Below, piece after piece: positions 53,398 through 64,000 of a stretch of DNA of 64,000 nucleotides. A model generated the notes under the pieces. That model was not told the origin of the DNA and made no database searches. It was given only the letters and a program-made list of their open reading frames with translations. The stretch comes from an uncultured Chlamydiae bacterium. Lineage in GTDB: Bacteria > Chlamydiota > Chlamydiia > Chlamydiales > SM23-39. Made by a program: the position numbers and the translations under genes. The stretch is taken from assembly GCA_963828125.1 (NCBI GenBank), contig CAWHDP010000001.1, forward strand, positions 320,001 through 384,000. Direction: 5' to 3'. Every line of letters starts with the position of its first letter. Within the stretch, counting starts at the first letter, position 1.

Positions 53398-54074
53398 GAT
53401 TCATCTTCTGTATGCTCGTTTTAAGTGCTTCTTTTTTGGCGGAGGCCCAAGAGGCGCAAAAACCATTGTCTGTTATTTTTCTGGATATAGATGGGGTATT
53501 GATTGGAGCTCGGGATTTGGATCCTCTTTCGACATGGATACGACAAAAATTGGTTGAATTGTTTGGCTTAAAAGAAGAGCCATATAGAGGATATACAGAA
53601 TTACAGTGGAGGATAGCAGCCAGTCATTTTCTGGATGAATGCGCTGTAAAAAATCTTGAAAAATTGATTCAGCGAGTGAACGATGTGTCATCGGTAGCCA
53701 TCGTTCTTTCATCGGCTTGGAGGTTAGATGGGACTGCTGACGAAATCAAGAATCAGATGTTCAGAGGAGCATCTTTTGCTCCGTTCATCATAGATAAGAC
53801 GCCAGATGAAGATTGGTGGAGAAGAAGAAACGGCGAAGAGGAACTGTCCCCAGACGCCTTAAAAAAATATGGATTTGCGCTCAGAACAAGGGGCTCGGAG
53901 ATCAATTACTGGCTCTTGGAGAATCGGGAGAAATGGAATATCCAAAACTTTGTCATTCTTGATGATGTTGATTATGGAATATCAGAGCGATACCCAGATC
54001 ATTTCGTGGAGGTCTGCTGGCTGCTCTCCGAGGCGGATGTTGAAAAAGCGTACGATATTTTGACTAGGCCTTGA
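53394..54074 (+). CDS. HAD-family protein (Swiss-Army-knife RNA-repair-like) with a signal peptide
   Basis: FLDIDGVL, VLSSAWR, RGSEI, VILDD. Confidence 0.85.
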   Translation: MRFIFCMLVLSASFLAEAQEAQKPLSVIFLDIDGVLIGARDLDPLSTWIRQKLVELFGLKEEPYRGYTELQWRIAASHFLDECAVKNLEKLIQRVNDVSSVAIVLSSAWRLDGTADEIKNQMFRGASFAPFIIDKTPDEDWWRRRNGEEELSPDALKKYGFALRTRGSEINYWLLENREKWNIQNFVILDDVDYGISERYPDHFVEVCWLLSEADVEKAYDILTRP

Positions 54075-55332
54075 ATTTGAATTTTGAGTGAATCAGTACT
54101 TGTTTGCCTTTGAAAGCAAAACCAAGGTATCTATAGAGATCGCCTACTTCGATATTGGGTATCCGTAAACGGCAATTAGCTCTTTGAGAAGGGGGTGCAT
54201 CGATCGTTACATACCCGCTATAGAGGAGTACAGACCAGATGGCATTAGGGCTTTTTTCCAGATCGGGGAATATGATTCCTTCTTCGATTGTTTTTTCAAC
54301 AACGCCTCCCCTAAGAAGCTCCTCAATATCGACCTTCAAATCATCGGTTCCTCTAGCTATCAGATGTTTCATGAGCGCATTATCGCTCGTATTCACCCAA
54401 TATGGAGATAAGACTCCCATTTCAGCAATGCATTTTAAAACAGACCAAGGATTATAAATCCCACCGCAGGATCCAATGCGATAGCCATCATACCACTGAC
54501 TTATTTCGGATAATTTGGAGTCAAGTCCATAATCTTCGAGAAGGATTTTTACCTCTGATTCAAGGAGTCCGAATTGGTTGCTAAATGGTTCGTTTAGGAT
54601 TGTGAAGGTACTGATGTTATTTGCTCCTGAAAAAATACTTTCTTTTGCAATCCGCAAAATCCCGGTAAGCACGCCTCGTTCCAGATGGATATTGTCTTTA
54701 AAGCCTTTGGACATCCAATTTCGTAGGATTTCGATGATCTGGTCGTAGTATTTCCAAATATAGGCAGCATGTGCTGGCGCATCATATTCATCAACCAGGA
54801 GAATGACTCGTTTTTTATGATAGCGGTGTAGCCATTCTGAAAGAAGAAGAAGGCTTTCTTCAAGTAAGAGTGGGTCGTTATCTTCAGAAAGAACCTTAGA
54901 AAATAGTTTCTTTTCCCGTTCCGTTAAAAGCTCTTTTTCCAGAAGATATCTATGATGCTCATATTCTTTTGCAACCAATTTGCGGAAAGCTCCAAGGGTC
55001 TTTTCTAACGAGGAGTGTTTTACATCTTTGAGCGAGATGGAAACAACAGGGAACTGTCCCTGCAGAGCTCTGTACTTCTCGTTTTTCCAAATATTTAGAT
55101 CTTTGAACAGGTAGCTTGTATCCTCTTCACTCTTCTCAAAGAAATAGCGCAACATTGAAAGGTTCAATGTTTTGCCAAAGCGGCGTGGGCGTGGAATGAG
55201 GGCGACTTCAGTTCCTTTCTCTACAATTTCCTGCACCAAGAGGGTTTTATCCACATAGGCGTAGCCCCCATCTCTCAGTTTTTTGAAATCGCTAATCCCG
55301 ATAGGGAGTGGTTTTTTCGTACTGTTTTTCAC
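54064..55332 (-). pseudogene. AAA-ATPase-like/PD-(D/E)XK protein with the nuclease domain deleted
   Basis: PIGISDF, YVDKT, RPRRFGKTLNLSML, DEYD, YNPWS, IPNIEV followed directly by terminal LGFAFKGKQV. Confidence 0.8.
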
Positions 55333-55426
55333 AAGATCTCCTATCAGAGAGGATACCTATTTTGGGGTAAAAGATGTAGAGAATTCAGGCTGATACGCCT
55401 ATCTCCGGTCATTAAACCTTAGCGCA

Positions 55427-55690
55427 GTGGACCAGATACTGTTCGTCGCTGACGGGGCCCACTGGATATGGGACTCGGTGCAACTCGCCAGGAAAATGCT
55501 CGACATGGGTGGCGTACGCTGTAAAATCCTGGAGTTAATCGATTTTTACCATGCGGTGCAGCATTTGCATGCGTTCGCGGAACTGAAGCGCCAATGGTCC
55601 AGAAGAAAGCGGAAGCAATGGATATCGCGGCAGAAACACCTGCTCAAGAACGGTGGGACCACTCAAGTGATCGAGAATTTACAAAATGAG
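55427..55690 (+). mobile_element. ISKra4/ISLre2-like transposase internal fragment
   Basis: ADGAHWIW, IDFYHAVQHL. Confidence 0.8.
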
Positions 55691-56165
55691 TTAGTTTGTC
55701 GAAACGTATCCCCTGAATTGCAGAGTGTTTTTCCATCAATTGCAATGACTCCCTCGACCGTTGCCGCAATTGTACGAATCCAGTGCATGAAACATTCGTG
55801 AAAACTCTTTGGGTCAAGGAGTCGAAATACCCTATTGAGAGTGTCGTGGGAAGGAACTCCATTCAAACACAATCCAACAGAAGCAAGCCAGTCCCGTCGA
55901 AAGTAGGCCCATCTGTAAACAGAGACAAAGTCATTCGCATCAGCAATAATTCCCATGATGGTGATGGCAACTATATCGATCAGAGGGTAACTTTGGTTTC
56001 GTTTTTTGCGGGGATCGGGAAGCTCTCCGAAGGCGAGAAGAAGAGGGGCATTTGCCGGTAATGAAAAACTCATGTGTATCTCCAGGTTATAAAAAACCCG
56101 TAAAGTACACACTTATAAAGAATTTCTTGTCAAAAAGATTCAAAATTTTTCATGCCATTTCCCTG
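55688..56165 (-). mobile_element. ISAs1-family element, left end plus truncated transposase (ATG 56073)
   Basis: LPDPR, GVPSHDTLNRVF, IAIDGKTL; end sequence CAGGGAAATGGCATG at 56165-56151. Confidence 0.88.
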
Positions 56166-56305: not shown

Positions 56306-57376
56306 TTAGGTCTTTTTGGTGATTTTGTGGCATTGAGGACATCCGACTGGGCTACGGTCGAGAGCCATGAGCTGGAAGGTAGGTGTTTGACATTTGAGAC
56401 AGGGCAAGGGTTCTGTTCGATGGGTTTTAGGGTCCCATACGATTTCAATCGGAATACGGGCGCCTTGATGAATAAGGGTAATCGGGGTCGCGATTTGAAG
56501 CTGTTCGATCCAGAGGACATTGACCAGGCGGATCTCCGTTTGCAGGGAGTTCTTTTTTTGCAAATCAGCAATTCGTGCCTTCTCCTCCAAGTCGATTGTT
56601 TGCAACTGTTGGGAAAAACGAGAAAAATCTTCGCCCTTGACTTTTGCTTTTTCTTGACGAGTTAGCAGCTCTTCTCTGAGTTCGCTAAAATATCCTTTTA
56701 GCCTTTGTGATTCTTTAGCAAAAGTAGTTTGCAGCTTTTGTTTTAGCATGGCTGTTCCGGCCTTGGCCTTTCCTGAGCACTCATTCCAAGCGATCATATA
56801 GCCCTCTTCTCGAGAGATAGAACTGGCATCGGGGTAGGGGAGGGGACGACAATAGGTGGTCTCTGAAGTATCCAGGAGAGATTCAAGGTGACGCGCTATT
56901 CTTCCAAAATGAAGATCGATGCCAACGGAGAGGAGTGTTTGCTGTTTTTCATCGCTTAAGTAAGTGATTTGAAAATGAAATAAAGCTTTCGAGAAATAAA
57001 GAGGGCGGGGAGTTCCAAAAGATAAGGTCAAATTAGGCGTAAGAATCAACGCCTGTCTGATTGAGGCTTCCAGGTTTTGAGGGGACCAGTTAGATTCCGA
57101 TAAGAAAATACGAGAGGATCTTCCGGCATCGACTGATTTTTGGAAGAGCTCATCGAGAGCAGGATCTCCCAGGGCCAAAAGCCGCGAGCCGGGATGTTCG
57201 GGGATAGCTTCCGGATCAAAACAGAAGCGAGTGAAATCTGCCTTTTTCCCATGGGCCAGAATTTTGCTTAATTCGCTGGGCAAAAGAGCGTCATAGACCT
57301 TGGATTCGACCTCTTCCCAAGGCACATCTTCAGCGTTGAAATAGGAGAGGAGAAATGATTCAAGAGGATGGGTCAT
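56306..57376 (-). CDS. YqhG-like partner of a SNF2 helicase
   Basis: Coupled to the helicase; coiled coil RLKGYF; C-terminal CxxC...CxxC. Confidence 0.65.
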   Translation of the reverse strand: MTHPLESFLLSYFNAEDVPWEEVESKVYDALLPSELSKILAHGKKADFTRFCFDPEAIPEHPGSRLLALGDPALDELFQKSVDAGRSSRIFLSESNWSPQNLEASIRQALILTPNLTLSFGTPRPLYFSKALFHFQITYLSDEKQQTLLSVGIDLHFGRIARHLESLLDTSETTYCRPLPYPDASSISREEGYMIAWNECSGKAKAGTAMLKQKLQTTFAKESQRLKGYFSELREELLTRQEKAKVKGEDFSRFSQQLQTIDLEEKARIADLQKKNSLQTEIRLVNVLWIEQLQIATPITLIHQGARIPIEIVWDPKTHRTEPLPCLKCQTPTFQLMALDRSPVGCPQCHKITKKT

Positions 57377-59469
57377 TCAGACACCGTAAATTTAGATCCA
57401 AAAAGCTCCTCTTCGTACTCTTGGCCTTTCAAATAGGTCTTTTTGGCATCGACAAGCTGCGATCCAAAGTCATCCATTTTATCGTGAAATTCTTCAGAAG
57501 TTTCCGTGTTTTGCCAGAGTTCAAGAATTTGATCTTCAAAGTCTTTTTCCTCTTCCATCTGGCCGAGAATCATATCCATTTCTCCCATGACCAGTTCGAA
57601 GAGGTTGATTTTTGCCTCTAGCAGATGAAGAATTTCCTCTTCGACAGTTCCTGCCGTGACAAAATTCAAGATGTGGACATCTCTTTTTTGACCAATACGG
57701 CTTAGACGACCGATTCTTTGCTCGATTCGCATGGGATTCCAGGGAAGATCGAAATTGCATAAAATATTGCAAAATTGTAAGTTTCTTCCTTCGCTTCCTG
57801 CGTCGGTGGAGAGCAGAATTTGTTTTTCTTCCCGGAAGACTTGAATTGCATGTTCTTTTTCCAGGCGGGATAATCCTCCATGGAATACGGCTGTACGAAC
57901 GCCCGCTTCTTCCAGTGCTTTATGTAATACTTCCTGAGTAGCACGAAATTGAGTAAAGACGACGGCTTTATCGCTCAGGCTTTTTGCCCATTCAACAAAT
58001 GCTTTCGTCTTTGCACAAGAGGGAAGGTTTTTAGCGGCTAGAGCAAAGGGAGCAAATGCTTTTTTCCCCCCCGTCTCGATAGTCTTGGTGAAAGCCATGG
58101 GCGTGCTACCCAATAGGCGTTGCAAAGAGAGAATCCCCATGCCGGTGGCATCTTCCAGGTTGGCGCCTTTTTGAAGTTGCTTTTTTGCAAATGCAGTGAA
58201 TTCTTGGTAAAAAGCAGACTCTTCTTGAGAAGGGGTGATGCGAACAGTCTTTGCAAATCTCTTGGTGAATTGGATTCCTATGGAGGATCTCCGGTTTCTG
58301 ATCATTGCCTCTTCTACAAGGCCATGGAGCTGGCCGATGTTTTTAGCTTTGAACTTATCCTTTGAATCCATGAATCGTTTTTTGAAGTTGGAATGGGTGC
58401 TAAGCAGGCCGGGTTTGAGCAGCGTAATGAGATTATAGAGATCTTCCAATCCATTTTGAATGGGAGTCGCCGTTAAAAGCAAGATGTACTTTTTCTGCAG
58501 AGCGCCCACGAATTTCCACAGTAAAGTCGAGCGGTTGCGTAGGTGATGGGCTTCATCCACAATGACCAGATCCCAATTCCTGGCTTCAATGAGGGATCGA
58601 TGTGGATCGCGTTTGGCTGTGTGATACGAGGCAACGATTAAATCAAATTCCTGCCAAGGATTCTTTTTTTCGAGGAAAGCTGCGTCGAAAGAGGCGGTAA
58701 AGTCTAGTCCGAATTTTCGCTGCATTTCTCCCTTCCACTGCGCCGTAAGAGCAGGGGGTGTGAGGATCAAAATATTTTGGCAAAGCTTCCTTAAATGAAG
58801 CTCAAGAGTAATAAGACCTGCCTCAATCGTTTTGCCCAGGCCCACTTCATCGCAAAGAAGCGCCTTTCCTCTAAATCGGTTCAGGACAGTTCGAGCTGTT
58901 TTAAGTTGGTGGTCATAGGGCTCCACCTCCTTCAAAAAAGGGAGGCTGATTAAGTTGTCAAATCCAGCAATCGTTAAGAACTGAGCCGCCTGTTTTGCTA
59001 GTTGAAACTTTTCCCATGAAGCCGAGGGGGCGTTCAAGATTTCGAAATCTTTCGGAAGAGGCTGTAATTCGCTATCTATTGGGGCAGTGGATCGAATCTG
59101 CGTTTCTTGAAGGTTGACCAAACGAAAGATCAGAGGAAACTCTTGTGTCAATTCCAGTGTATGGCAAGGCGGCAAGATTGTCTTTTTTGCAAATACAAAA
59201 GAGGGGCTATCCGCATCGAAACGGGCCTCGATCTTCTTTCCATCGGGACTTTCGATGTGGAGAAGTGCATCGGGTTCTAAGATTACAGTCCATGAGCTGT
59301 CTAACAGCAGCCGATCAGGTCTAATCGAACCTGAGGGAAGAGTCCAACGATCTCCGCAGCGAGCAAAGGGGTGCAAAAGAAGCCTCCTCCAAAAAACATA
59401 AGACAAGAGTTTATTCCGAAAAAGATACTTATGCAAGAGCTGCATGAGGATCGACTTGAAAAGCAACAA
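57373..59469 (-). CDS. SNF2/RapA-like helicase (YqhH-like); start uncertain
   Basis: DEVGLGKTIEAG, DEAHH, TATP, EGRNLQF, DLPWNPMRIEQRIGR. Confidence 0.92.
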   Translation of the reverse strand: MLLFKSILMQLLHKYLFRNKLLSYVFWRRLLLHPFARCGDRWTLPSGSIRPDRLLLDSSWTVILEPDALLHIESPDGKKIEARFDADSPSFVFAKKTILPPCHTLELTQEFPLIFRLVNLQETQIRSTAPIDSELQPLPKDFEILNAPSASWEKFQLAKQAAQFLTIAGFDNLISLPFLKEVEPYDHQLKTARTVLNRFRGKALLCDEVGLGKTIEAGLITLELHLRKLCQNILILTPPALTAQWKGEMQRKFGLDFTASFDAAFLEKKNPWQEFDLIVASYHTAKRDPHRSLIEARNWDLVIVDEAHHLRNRSTLLWKFVGALQKKYILLLTATPIQNGLEDLYNLITLLKPGLLSTHSNFKKRFMDSKDKFKAKNIGQLHGLVEEAMIRNRRSSIGIQFTKRFAKTVRITPSQEESAFYQEFTAFAKKQLQKGANLEDATGMGILSLQRLLGSTPMAFTKTIETGGKKAFAPFALAAKNLPSCAKTKAFVEWAKSLSDKAVVFTQFRATQEVLHKALEEAGVRTAVFHGGLSRLEKEHAIQVFREEKQILLSTDAGSEGRNLQFCNILCNFDLPWNPMRIEQRIGRLSRIGQKRDVHILNFVTAGTVEEEILHLLEAKINLFELVMGEMDMILGQMEEEKDFEDQILELWQNTETSEEFHDKMDDFGSQLVDAKKTYLKGQEYEEELFGSKFTVSE

Positions 59470-59946: not shown

Positions 59947-60459
59947 TAACTAACAGCAGACAGTTTAGCGGCTTATGAGATTTCGATCTACTGTGATCTT
60001 GAGCGATCTGCTGTGGTCTTTGGGGCTTTAGTGGTCATCCAATGGTCATTTGAGGATTTGGGACTTGAGGCCGAACATAGAAGAGCTTGAACGCTCACTG
60101 CTTCCATGTTCATTGCGATCTTTGGGTTTCCTATCGTTTAAATCGACCCAGAAGAGCAACCCCGAAGAACCCCGAAGCGAAAAATTTCGGGGTTGGTTTT
60201 CAGGGTTCAACCTTAGGTAAAATAAAGACTTTAAGAGGATCAAAAGGACCTTTGGAGAGTTCGACTAACAGCCCCTCAATCCATAGGAGGATATCTGTGT
60301 TTTTGTGCTTTTTCTTGGTTTTTTGAATTTAACATACAAAAAATAAGCATGTTATAAGAACGCAAACCTTGTGTTGCATTGTGTTCTTTGTGTTTTAAAA
60401 ATCAAGCAATCGCCCTAGAAGAATTGATTCGTATACGCTATAATCGTTTTGGGCTTGAT

Positions 60460-60720
60460 ATGATCGATCAAAATAAAGAAAAAATTTTCATTCGCTTAGC
60501 TTCCAAGGATGACTTTTCTGCGATTCAGACTCTCATGAAGGAGTCTATGCAGGTCTTGGGACAGGGCCATTACTCTACGCAACAAATTCAATCTTGTTGT
60601 CAATACGTATGTGTTCCAGATCTTCGGCTCATTGAAGATCAAACATTCTTTGTAGTCACTACTGGCCCTGAGAAAACAATTGTTGGCTGCGGGGGCTGGA
60701 GTTTCCGAAAAACCCTTTAA
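60460..60720 (+). pseudogene. Truncated GNAT acetyltransferase
   Basis: IRLA...LIEDQTFFVV...IVGCGGWS, stops before motif A, 18 bp from the IS end. Confidence 0.8.
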
Positions 60721-60904
60721 TGAAAAGGTAAATAGATGGCAACTGCTCATAAAACTGAGGTAATCACCCCGAAGCGGGGCCCCGATTACCTCGATTTCAT
60801 GGGCACTGTTTTTCACCGTCTAATCTGTGTTCGTTGAATAAAAAATTTAGGTGATTGTTTTCTAAACATTTGCTATTGTATCCAGCCATACAAGGCATGC
60901 ACAA

Positions 60905-62761
60905 ATGCAAGATTCCTCAAAAGTTCAAATTTCCTCTTCTCTTATCGATCAGCTTTCTAACGAAAACTTCCAACTCCGTCAACAAATTGATACAATGACC
61001 AATGCCTTGGCTGCACAAAAAGAACTGATCCAGCAACTCAAAGATGAAATTGCTCGCCTCAAAGGACAGAAGCCAAAACCGGACATTCCCCCCAATAACC
61101 TGGAAGGGAAAAAGAACAAGCCCGATCTATATAAACGAATTAGCCTCATCGATGTCCACGAGATGCGCGTTTTGTTCATTTCACCCGCGCAATTCACAAC
61201 GAGTTTTGATGTTTCATTGTCGTCTCGCGATTTTTTCATAATCACTTCACCTTTGTTGCAAGAACGAACAGTTGAACTTTCTCGATTAGCTAGACTGATG
61301 ATCAAAAATATTAGGAGAATTGGAAAACCTGGGCAACCAAGAGGCAAGAAACGTAAAAAGAAAAAAACAGTACTAGAAATCCACACCAAATTGGAAATTC
61401 AGCCTGAAAATATTCCGGATGGCGCTAAATTCAAAGGTTATTGCCATTATACAGTGCAAGACATCCTCCTTAAACCACACAATATCCAATACAAATTGGC
61501 TCGATGGGAACTACCTGATGGCACTTACGTAACAGGGCAACTCCCTAAAGATATCCATGGGCACTATGGCCCAGAATTGGTGACTTACATCCTTCACCAA
61601 TACCATGCTTGCCGTGTTACAGAGCATCTTCTATTAGACCAGCTACGCGCTATCGGTATTTTGATTTCCGCAGGCCAACTGAACAATATTTTAATTGAGA
61701 ACAAGAACCCTTTCATTGAAGAAGCTGCAGAGCTAATGCTTGCTGCCACAAGTGTAGAAAACCAGGTGCAAGTGGACGATACAGGCGGTCGGCATAATGG
61801 GCAAAATCAGTACACAACGGTCATAGGGAATCGTTGGTTCAGTATTTTTACAACGACAGAAAGTAAGAGCCGGAAAAATTTTCTCCAATTGCTTCAAAAT
61901 GGAAAAGAAGAATATGTGATCAATCAAGATACCCTGGAATATCTGTCACATGTGAACGTTGCTGAGTATCTGCCTGGCTATGTCTCTCTGTCCTTAAATA
62001 GCAAATTTGCAACACTCGCAGAATGGGAGCAATTTTTAAGGGAACGTAATGTTACGAAGGAATCAGAAGTTCGTTTTCTCACAGAAGCAGCTTTGTATGC
62101 ATCTGTGATACAAAATGGAATCTCACGCGAACTGGGTGTGCATAGTGATGATGCAGGGCAGTTTTATGTATTTCAACATTCGCTATGCTGGATTCATGAA
62201 GATAGGCACTATAGAAAGCTCCTCATGACAACTGACAAGTCTCGATCTGAATTGGAACAAGTCAGAGAGCAAATATGGGATATCTATCAAGACCTTAAAA
62301 CCTATAAAGAATCACCCTCTCAAGAAGTTGCAGAGAGCATAAGCAAAAAATTTGATGCCATTTTTCAGCAGAAAACGTCCAGTCCTACCTTGAATCACCA
62401 ACTGGAGAAAACTCGTGACAAAAAGCAAGAACTACTTATGGTTCTGCGGAGGCCGGAGACGCCTTTGCATAATAACAGTTCGGAAACATGTGCCCGTGCG
62501 GCAAAAATAAAGCTGAAAATTTCTGGGGGAACTCGTAGTGAAATGGGGCAGAAAGTTAGAGACACCTTTTTAAGTCTAAAACAGACATGCCGAAAACTCG
62601 AGATCAATTTTTTGTCCTTTTTACAGGACAGAGTACGTGGGAAATATGCGATTCCTCGTTTAGCAACCGTGATTTTTGACCGAGCGCTAGCGGCTGCTGC
62701 AGACCCACCCGCACGAAACTCAAATGAAGCTGTAGAACATTGTTTGCCTCTCGTTGGGTAA
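60905..62761 (+). CDS. IS66-family transposase
   Basis: N-terminal coiled coil, VDDTG, SDDAGQF, LCWIH, PLHNNSSE, KISGGTRS, TCRKL. Confidence 0.92.
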   Translation: MQDSSKVQISSSLIDQLSNENFQLRQQIDTMTNALAAQKELIQQLKDEIARLKGQKPKPDIPPNNLEGKKNKPDLYKRISLIDVHEMRVLFISPAQFTTSFDVSLSSRDFFIITSPLLQERTVELSRLARLMIKNIRRIGKPGQPRGKKRKKKKTVLEIHTKLEIQPENIPDGAKFKGYCHYTVQDILLKPHNIQYKLARWELPDGTYVTGQLPKDIHGHYGPELVTYILHQYHACRVTEHLLLDQLRAIGILISAGQLNNILIENKNPFIEEAAELMLAATSVENQVQVDDTGGRHNGQNQYTTVIGNRWFSIFTTTESKSRKNFLQLLQNGKEEYVINQDTLEYLSHVNVAEYLPGYVSLSLNSKFATLAEWEQFLRERNVTKESEVRFLTEAALYASVIQNGISRELGVHSDDAGQFYVFQHSLCWIHEDRHYRKLLMTTDKSRSELEQVREQIWDIYQDLKTYKESPSQEVAESISKKFDAIFQQKTSSPTLNHQLEKTRDKKQELLMVLRRPETPLHNNSSETCARAAKIKLKISGGTRSEMGQKVRDTFLSLKQTCRKLEINFLSFLQDRVRGKYAIPRLATVIFDRALAAAADPPARNSNEAVEHCLPLVG

Positions 62762-62851
62762 TTCGCTGCCAGGAGAAATCACATTGCAAGATGCTTGCCT
62801 CCTGGGCTAGAATAATCCAGTTTTAGCAAGCTTTCAGAAGCGAATTAGAAA

Positions 62852-63328
62852 ATGTGTAAATGTAAAACAAGTTGTTCCACATATCGATGCGATTGTCTAA
62901 AAAACGGTCAAGGATGTACTGAGAAATGTCGTTGTGTTAATTGCCATAACCCTCTGAATGGACAAGACACGGAACATCTGGCATTGTGTGCTATACAAAA
63001 TATTCGTATCGTCAAAGACCTTAAAGATAAAGAATTATCCAAAGAAATACTACTGCCGTGTGAATGCGAAAGCGTTCCCTTGAAATCCTTGCTGGGAGAA
63101 TATGACTGTTCTAAATGCCAAGAAACTTATTGGTTTTCTTTTTGCTGGAACGATGTAGCTGCAGACAATTGTAGTTGGCATTGTGAGATTTGCAAAACAT
63201 GTAGAGATTGGAGAGAGTGGCATTGTGACAAATGCAATAGGTGTACTTATGGTGTGTCACTTCCTTGTGAACATTGCGGCAAAAGGGTCCATATGCAGAT
63301 TGGTAACCGAGTCCCATTTCTGGAGTGA
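62852..63328 (+). CDS. Cysteine-rich multi-zinc-finger protein (24 Cys in 158 aa) with an N-terminal CXC-like cluster
   Basis: [50 protein letters not shown]; stop lies inside the right TIR. Confidence 0.85.
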
Positions 63329-63353
63329 TTACCTCAATTTTATGAGCACTTGC

Positions 63354-63926: not shown

Positions 63927-64000
63927 TGTCAAGCGACACCAGAAAGTGACCCACCGGCGACATTGAAAAGTGACCCACCCCCAATCTTTTCTTTAATGAC
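63927..64000 (+). mobile_element. IS21-family element end, runs out of the window
   Basis: TG terminus with tandem GCGACA..AAAGTGACCCACC repeats. Confidence 0.8.

Follow-up and report, generated by a model that had tools for sequence, protein, structure and literature searches.

An insertion sequence with a second gene

The window, a 64,000-nucleotide stretch of the genome of an uncultured Chlamydiae bacterium (assembly GCA_963828125.1, contig CAWHDP010000001.1, positions 320,001 to 384,000), contains an insertion sequence (IS) of the IS66 family that encloses two genes between its terminal inverted repeats (TIRs). The element is 2615 bp long (60739..63353, forward strand), is of the transporter type and has ISBst12-like ends. 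Its first gene encodes a DDE transposase of 618 amino acids (aa) (60905..62761, forward strand); the second, in the same orientation (62852..63328, forward strand), encodes a 158-aa protein with 24 cysteines, referred to here as the passenger. An earlier, sequence-only reading of this stretch had proposed this pair of intact genes as well as TIRs of 52 bp, and both proposals stand. The left TIR (60739..60790, forward strand) begins GCAAC and the right TIR (63302..63353) begins GCAAG on the minus strand and overlaps the end of the passenger gene; the pair is identical at 41 of 52 positions and at 27 of the outermost 29. A candidate inner end, GTAATC...GATTAC at 60760, was rejected because target duplications lie outside 60739 and 63353.

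The window genome (2.37 Mb in 2 contigs) holds the element in eight full copies that share their ends and differ at 0–2 bases. Both open reading frames (ORFs) are undamaged and lie inside the TIRs in all eight; none of these copies ends before 62852, and the passenger moves with the element. Further copies with 8-bp target duplications had also been predicted, and such direct repeats flank 5 of the 8. No duplication was found at the window copy or at two others, and the flanks of these three do not pair with one another. The five duplications are AT-rich with no evident motif otherwise, and four of the five copies that they flank interrupt a frame of more than 130 codons. The element has been active in recent time. 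The genome also holds two left-end stubs and one right-end stub, as well as a 72-bp mini-element (G000:C2:1098594-1098665) in which both terminal motifs surround a palindrome, with an 8-bp duplication of its own. Two full copies are arranged back to back with 2.7 kb between them (G000:C1:416774-424726) and could form a composite transposon; they arrived separately, because one of them has its own duplication.

The assignment to IS66 is upheld by the transposase, which matches PF03050 above its cutoff (E = 1.5e-12, 48 bits; cutoff 23.1) and scores 104 bits with NF033517, below the cutoff of 180. The protein begins with a coiled coil. D291, D292, D415, E527 and the C428, W429 and H431 of a CWIH motif (428–431) are invariant across 62 sequences, which makes D291/D292, D415 and E527 candidate catalytic residues. 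The predicted structure (predicted local distance difference test (pLDDT) score 77) has as its top match the DDE transposase of ISCth4 (E = 2.2e-7). Homologues are plentiful (1508 among 8000 candidates scored). Only 166 bases separate the left end from the transposase start, which leaves no space for the tnpA and tnpB genes of the classical three-gene IS66 layout, and no such ORFs are present. At the left end, the terminal motif occurs twice, in facing orientation on either side of a palindrome, and so makes up a 72-bp hairpin (60739..60810, forward strand). It folds at −13.9 kcal/mol (z = −3.06; the right end reaches only 0.21), and relatives that have no passenger carry similar hairpin ends. 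The two copies are probably a pair of predicted transposase-binding sites.

A weak promoter-like site (62784..62813, forward strand) precedes the passenger gene by 39 bases and matches 9 of 12 consensus positions, but it is not above chance, because 8 such sites occur compared with 5.2 ± 2.3 in shuffled sequences.

The passenger joins a CXC domain to CTCHY-like fingers

The passenger consists of a cysteine cluster (residues 2–33), a helical, zinc-ribbon-like middle part, tandem WHCxxC fingers (109–142) and a tail (about 144–158). Of 285 candidates of similar length, 283 proved to be homologues, most of them 55–65% identical, and 62 sequences were aligned to represent the family. The sequence-only reading had likened the N-terminal cysteines to the CXC clusters of tesmin, and this was confirmed: the window protein matches Pfam TCR (E = 2.9e-4; 21.5 bits, under the cutoff of 23.5), and at E ≤ 0.05, 61 of the 62 family members match TCR and 37 match MSL2-CXC. 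Residues 2–33 follow the nine-Cys CXC consensus that ends in CxN (taken from the available text of PMC3447885), as do 61 of the 62 aligned members, and the terminal Asn33 is kept in all 62. The closest relative of solved structure is the CXC domain of LIN54 (E = 9.7e-4). Arg12, kept in 60 of 62 homologues, aligns with the arginine that precedes the fourth cysteine of MSL2; this is R543 in the numbering of PMC4248295, the available text of which describes it as the sole base-reading residue. Structural similarity to MSL2 is weak (VIA Z = 2.0, root-mean-square deviation (rmsd) 2.4, 39 aligned residues). As judged from its sequence, the passenger has a genuine CXC domain of the tesmin/MSL2 type, followed by CTCHY-like fingers. 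The CXC domain would be expected to form a Zn3Cys9 cluster and probably binds DNA.

The C-terminal half includes an invariant stretch, WHCxxCxxCRxWREWHCxxCxxCxYG, and the invariant residues that are not metal ligands include S96, W99, W109, R118, W120, R121, E122, W123, Y133 and G134. An earlier comparison of these fingers with CTCHY/ZCCHC4-type fingers recurred in our searches, although with weak scores: the best structural neighbours of residues 71–142 are the fingers of the ZCCHC4 C terminus (Foldseek E = 0.1; VIA Z = 3.5, rmsd 3.8, 59 aligned residues) and of Pirh2 (CHY, E = 0.8). No PDB or BFVD entry matched the passenger at a Foldseek E ≤ 0.001, which is not evidence of a new fold. The model is otherwise well ordered (pLDDT 87.8), except for residues 146–158 (<50). 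The stop codon (63326–63328) does fall within the right TIR, as had been noted, but the tail that lies there (the last 15 residues) is read-through and not a conserved feature, because the nearest homologues end at about 143–149 (five of the six shown are 143–149 aa long) and because of the low pLDDT of 146–158.

A profile of the passenger finds 707 representatives at E ≤ 0.001. Among these are several long eukaryotic proteins that cover the whole module of CXC domain and fingers (E = 1e-16 to 1e-24), and oomycetes and fungi are among the eukaryotes that possess the complete module; named sources are Globisporangium, Thraustotheca, Ancoracysta, Lophium and Ramularia, and most of one Atlas cluster (0.90) comes from rotifers. 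In 68 longer or distant homologues that were scanned, additional domains were of the TRF2/HOY1 PH-like (7), RING (4), chromo (2) and HMG box (1) types, and a transposase domain occurred in none. A separate search for longer proteins gave 5 matches among 3934 candidates, none of which is fused to a transposase. Seven eukaryotic homologues (P0337, P0341, P0350, P0355, P0358, P0394 and P0400) end in CaaX-like tails (for example, CCIM, CVIM and CTIM), which we take to be prenylation motifs.

These data bear on two accounts of the protein. It might be a metallothionein-like buffer of zinc, cadmium or oxidants that serves the host; 24 cysteines in 158 aa, the net acidic charge and the occurrence of CXC-like Zn3Cys9 clusters in metallothioneins (PMC3447885, available text) are consistent with this, as is a lineage (L079/L082) in which the gene adjoins a cation-efflux gene. 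However, the many invariant non-ligand residues and the ordered model point to a specific binding surface, a metal transporter is only 1 of 107 scanned neighbours, and in eukaryotes homologues carry RING, PH, chromo and HMG domains as fusions; we regard metal or redox buffering as improbable. The second account, an effector that a chlamydia-related symbiont sends into the nucleus of its eukaryotic host, had been raised by the sequence-only reading. The domain is of eukaryotic type, the bacterial host genome is probably chlamydia-related, and the module is present in protists and fungi. Against this, the phylum sample of 400 genomes includes just 2 with the passenger, its named bacterial homologues belong to sulfate reducers and sediment dwellers (Desulfonema, Magnetomorum, Desulfotignum and Desulfobulbaceae), and the protein begins at the first cysteine with no N-terminal extension. 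We consider such an effector very unlikely.

Single-gene relatives of the element

To what extent the element depends on its passenger can be judged from its relatives. In a phylum sample of 400 scored genomes, with the window genome counted in, a related transposase occurs in 28 and the passenger in 2, and the second passenger genome belongs to the same order as the window genome and contains the same stretch as locus L005. The retrieved surroundings of 28 other transposase loci, truncated in some cases, contain no passenger. The terminal end pattern is present in 13 of 102 other genomes of the same family, and no passenger lies in the retrieved flanks of 25 other TIR loci. The sisters that share these ends have a single gene and are 1.70–1.98 kb long, in line with the single-ORF organization of ISBst12-group elements. 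The complete, one-contig genome G111 contains five single-gene copies (1753–1755 bp) with the same ends and an 8-bp duplication at 5 of 5, and has no passenger match. An obligate two-gene IS66 system is therefore not supported: the transposase occurs in 27 other genomes of the 400 and the passenger in 1 other, and G111 has its single-gene copies.

The sister transposases are about 54% identical to that of the window and do not have a 60-residue insert that it contains. Judged from sisters at this distance, there is no sign that the passenger is needed for movement. In the favoured reading, an IS that otherwise has one gene gained the passenger in the interval from its transposase to its right end. 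From the chemistry of the family, the transposase alone would recognize terminal motifs of 21–29 bp and insert the element with an 8-bp duplication.

Other derivatives of the sisters were also seen. G111 contains 115-bp mini-elements with the same ends, with a duplication at the one examined, and a 3670-bp copy of the single-gene sister (L167, G111:C1:1121300-1125200) with an inserted 486-codon frame, presumably a group II intron reverse transcriptase. In another sister (L101), the terminal inverted repeats are near-perfect over 148 bp (968–1115 and 2797–2944).

Genomic settings of the passenger gene

To the surroundings of the passenger we assigned classes by hand at 85 loci (5 from genomes and the best 80 of 243 metagenome matches; L006 and L007, E = 3e-4, had been dropped because the family profile did not score them) and reduced redundancy to 53 clusters at 90% identity. 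The gene lies inside an IS at 18 loci (14 clusters), in cassette-like settings at 10 (5 clusters), beside defence or toxin–antitoxin genes at 28 (9 clusters) and in other settings at 29 (25 clusters); 67 of 85 loci are thus outside any recognized IS. The link between passenger homologues and transposases that the sequence-only reading had anticipated holds in part: only two loci are tied to the window transposase family, and 16 more lie inside ISKra4-family elements. The gene is rare and patchily distributed, occurring in 1 of 401 genomes in the phylum of G402. It matched none of 8 candidate stretches in viral contigs, and none was found in plasmids or phages. Contigs from 4 runs contain fragments of passenger and transposase, none of which bridges the two genes.

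A second, diverged IS66-like element (L076) has the layout that had been proposed. It is 2619 bp long and has a perfect 25-bp repeat of the GTAA type (25/25) and the same gene order; its transposase shares 44% identity, and its passenger 58%, with the respective protein of the window element. At L005, the 3′ half of the passenger is followed by the right end of the window element (23 of 24 positions match) and the gene is broken there. A clade of 15 ISKra4-like loci has the order left repeat, passenger, transposase, right repeat; seven of its transposases that are full length score 186–201 bits with NF033572 (cutoff 205), and both ends are visible at 8 loci, with a duplication at 1 of these. 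At L087, repeats with a 9-bp duplication enclose a transposase of the ISKra4 type (361 bits), then an ORF of 291 aa that weakly resembles DUF4338, and then the passenger.

In integrons, the passenger is the first cassette at L085, where it adjoins a split integron integrase. A cassette signature was found at 9 of 84 loci compared with 1.0 (maximum 4) in 300 shuffles, and attC-like hairpins at 8 of 10 loci that were folded (by inspection; the z-scores are best-of picks and overstated). The cassette count excludes L002, L003 and L024, which bear the signature and have no attC, and includes L037, L057, L008 and L015, which were added by inspection; the cassettes have atypical core sites and therefore escaped a strict attC pattern, and a complement test with folding detected them. 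The defence-side neighbours include PglZ, subunits of type I restriction–modification systems, Schlafen-AlbA, DNA methylases, AbiE and HicB. In one lineage, which adjoins Schlafen-AlbA and PglZ genes, the gene directly upstream of the CXC gene is conserved, encodes 120 aa and belongs to no known family (L022, 5608–5967, and 13 other loci); it possibly forms a two-gene module with the CXC gene.

The families of the window and ISKra4-type transposases have no profile similarity (probability 0.1), and the passenger therefore changed vehicle at least once. In quick trees, the window passenger groups with P0001–P0006, and the ISKra4-like clade, L076 and L087 fall elsewhere. The approximately unbiased test does not reject one common clade for the IS-borne passengers (p-AU = 0.141; 56 of 105 rows in a quick tree), so independent capture is not proven.

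Selection and the role of the passenger

Across eight ISKra4-type elements, the passenger has a median ratio of nonsynonymous to synonymous substitution rates (dN/dS) of 0.066, with 15 of 28 pairs unsaturated; the transposase has one of 0.069, with 18 of 28 unsaturated, and purifying selection on the passenger is thus equal in strength to that on the transposase. Distances of the two proteins co-vary over the same elements (Mantel ρ = 0.70, P = 0.009). The window passenger differs from that of L005 with dN = 0.065 and dS = 0.93 (dN/dS about 0.07). This ratio, together with the retention of all 35 invariant alignment columns in the window copy and its integrity in all eight genomic copies (which are too young for a selection test), argues against a captured gene that merely hitchhikes and has no present function in the element. 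Its C terminus has eroded into the TIR and the gene is broken at L005, as a neutral passenger might be, but we consider neutrality highly improbable.

A stronger competitor is an accessory that serves the element: the CXC protein would bind the ends, the promoter or the target and tune or aim transposition, being optional yet favoured, and adopted by several DDE lineages. The passenger lies inside the TIRs of four element types (the window element, L076, the 15 ISKra4-like loci and L087), and the co-divergence and matched selection described above fit this account. When 301 genomes were searched with the ISKra4-type transposase, five loci were found; both of those that show the left repeat of the clade (L132 and L135) carry the passenger, one shows the 3′ end alone, and two more distant ones (L133 and L136) have no passenger. 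Moreover, the structure model of the IS66-like transposase resembles a Mutator-fold transposase, the superfamily of ISKra4 in the available text of PMC3942029. Against an accessory, single-gene sisters multiply without the passenger; the more distant ISKra4-like loci L133 and L136 lack it; the two transposase families share no profile similarity; none of the 68 scanned homologues has a transposase domain; cassette and stand-alone passengers occur with no transposase; the five target duplications show no motif beyond AT-richness; and any passenger that is held for long would also co-diverge. We judge this account to be rather unlikely, and give about the same modest weight to a broader one, in which the module of CXC domain and CTCHY-like fingers is an unrecognized general accessory of bacterial mobile DNA, recruited repeatedly by IS66-like and ISKra4 elements as a DNA-binding regulator or targeting aid and kept by integrons and defence islands in a one-gene version with counterparts in protists and fungi.

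We favour, by a narrow measure, the reading that the window element is a transporter IS and that the passenger is nucleic-acid-binding cargo, probably related to defence or stress. The gene looks like useful cargo because it also rides in other mobile elements; it is free-standing and travels in ISKra4-family elements and integron cassettes as well. Its product is a predicted multi-zinc protein, the CXC domain of which would probably read DNA through the conserved arginine, in the manner of MSL2, and the invariant C-terminal fingers may provide a second binding surface. The context suggests a function in defence or stress that benefits the host and so repays carriage. Of the options offered by the sequence-only reading, a targeting or regulatory factor or cargo, cargo is thus preferred, and an obligate second subunit is not supported.

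Several observations weigh against the cargo reading. The whole protein is acidic (family median net charge −8, with +2 for the N-terminal domain), which is atypical of a strong DNA binder, and none of four family members matched PADLOC 2.0 (library from 2023) at E ≤ 0.01. The metagenome loci are redundant; the count of 28 of 85 loci (9 of 53 clusters) with defence neighbours is a raw count from hand-assigned classes; and the 29 ‘other’ loci (25 of 53 clusters) have surroundings that are ordinary or too short, 15 of them with less than 700 bases on one side. In the ISKra4 clade, the constancy of the passenger and its co-divergence with the transposase fit a role in the service of the element equally well.

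The gene would be either a new defence or stress module common to several domains of life or a portable regulator of transposition. One compact CXC protein is maintained by strong selection as it moves among transposons of two families, cassettes of integrons and regions of defence genes; a gene that is repeatedly picked up by different mobile elements is usually valuable, and the passenger is therefore a small, ready test object, for which an active IS66-type element offers natural versions with and without the gene.

Neighbouring features of the window

Immediately before the element, a 113-aa ORF (60379–60720) ends 18 bases from its left end and occurs once in the genome. Its end looks to us like a truncated GNAT acetyltransferase, with no support from Pfam or NCBIfam, and it may reflect an adjacent deletion, because the window copy has no duplication. 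After the element, another repeated element starts at 63927–64000, with 23-bp direct repeats and several genomic copies, presumably an IS21-type end. Further upstream, an SNF2-type helicase (698 aa) precedes an ORF of 356 aa that weakly matches YqhG and a zinc ribbon (56306–59469), an arrangement which we take to resemble the yqhH/yqhG pair, and an AAA-ATPase-like ORF (PF09820) lies with a DDE_Tnp_1_assoc fragment at 54064–56112, in a region full of mobile-element debris.

Comparison with known systems

GTAA ends are a hallmark of the IS66 family. The ends of the window element read GCAA, and are otherwise close to the GTAA end of L076 and to the end of ISDge4, which is printed as GTAACTGCTCAGCA (PMC12898284, available text). 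Like the ISBst12 group, of which ISDge4 is a single-ORF member with an 8-bp duplication in that source, the window element has a single DDE transposase with PF03050 and an 8-bp duplication (5 of 8 copies in the window genome and 5 of 5 intact copies examined in G111). It differs in that its ends start with GCAA rather than GTAA or GTGA, in that its transposase has 618 aa and scores below the NCBIfam cutoff, compared with 449 aa in ISDge4, and in its second gene and 72-bp left-end hairpin. Since each of its 8 copies encloses a passenger gene between the TIRs, it falls among the transporter IS (tIS), a named class that is restricted to the IS1595 and IS66 families in the available text of a TnCentral preprint and of PMC9330008; unlike other tIS, it has as its passenger a CXC zinc module of eukaryotic type, one that ISKra4-family elements and integrons carry too.

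The ISKra4 family, to or near which L087 and the 15-locus clade belong and the window element does not, is described in PMC3942029 (its p-MULT 4, with the ISAzba1 and ISKra4 groups) as having one to three extra ORFs without known function. The main text of that paper has no mention of cysteine or zinc, and the searchable parts of its supplement contain no CXC or cysteine term, although the supplement may list the passenger as a hypothetical gene. A literature search, judged by the titles listed and made outside ISfinder, found no bacterial CXC or tesmin gene of this kind described with a transposase, an integron or a mobile element, and nothing on ISKra4 cargo with an anti-phage role; the available text of a BREX review (PMC12839542) mentions neither CXC nor tesmin. 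Integron cassettes without known function can encode phage resistance (bioRxiv 10.1101/2024.07.02.601719, available text).

On the side of the protein, the passenger shares with the CXC domains of LIN54/tesmin and MSL2 the nine-Cys spacing, the signature asparagine and the MSL2-type arginine, but it combines one CXC domain with CTCHY-like fingers in a stand-alone bacterial protein of about 150 aa. CXC clusters are familiar parts of chromatin proteins in eukaryotes. Residues 71–142 are neighbours of ZCCHC4 and Pirh2 by structure, weakly (Z = 3.5, E = 0.1), and the passenger differs from them in having no methyltransferase or RING domain. Overall, the element is of a kind that is already known, whereas its passenger is undescribed and unusually mobile.

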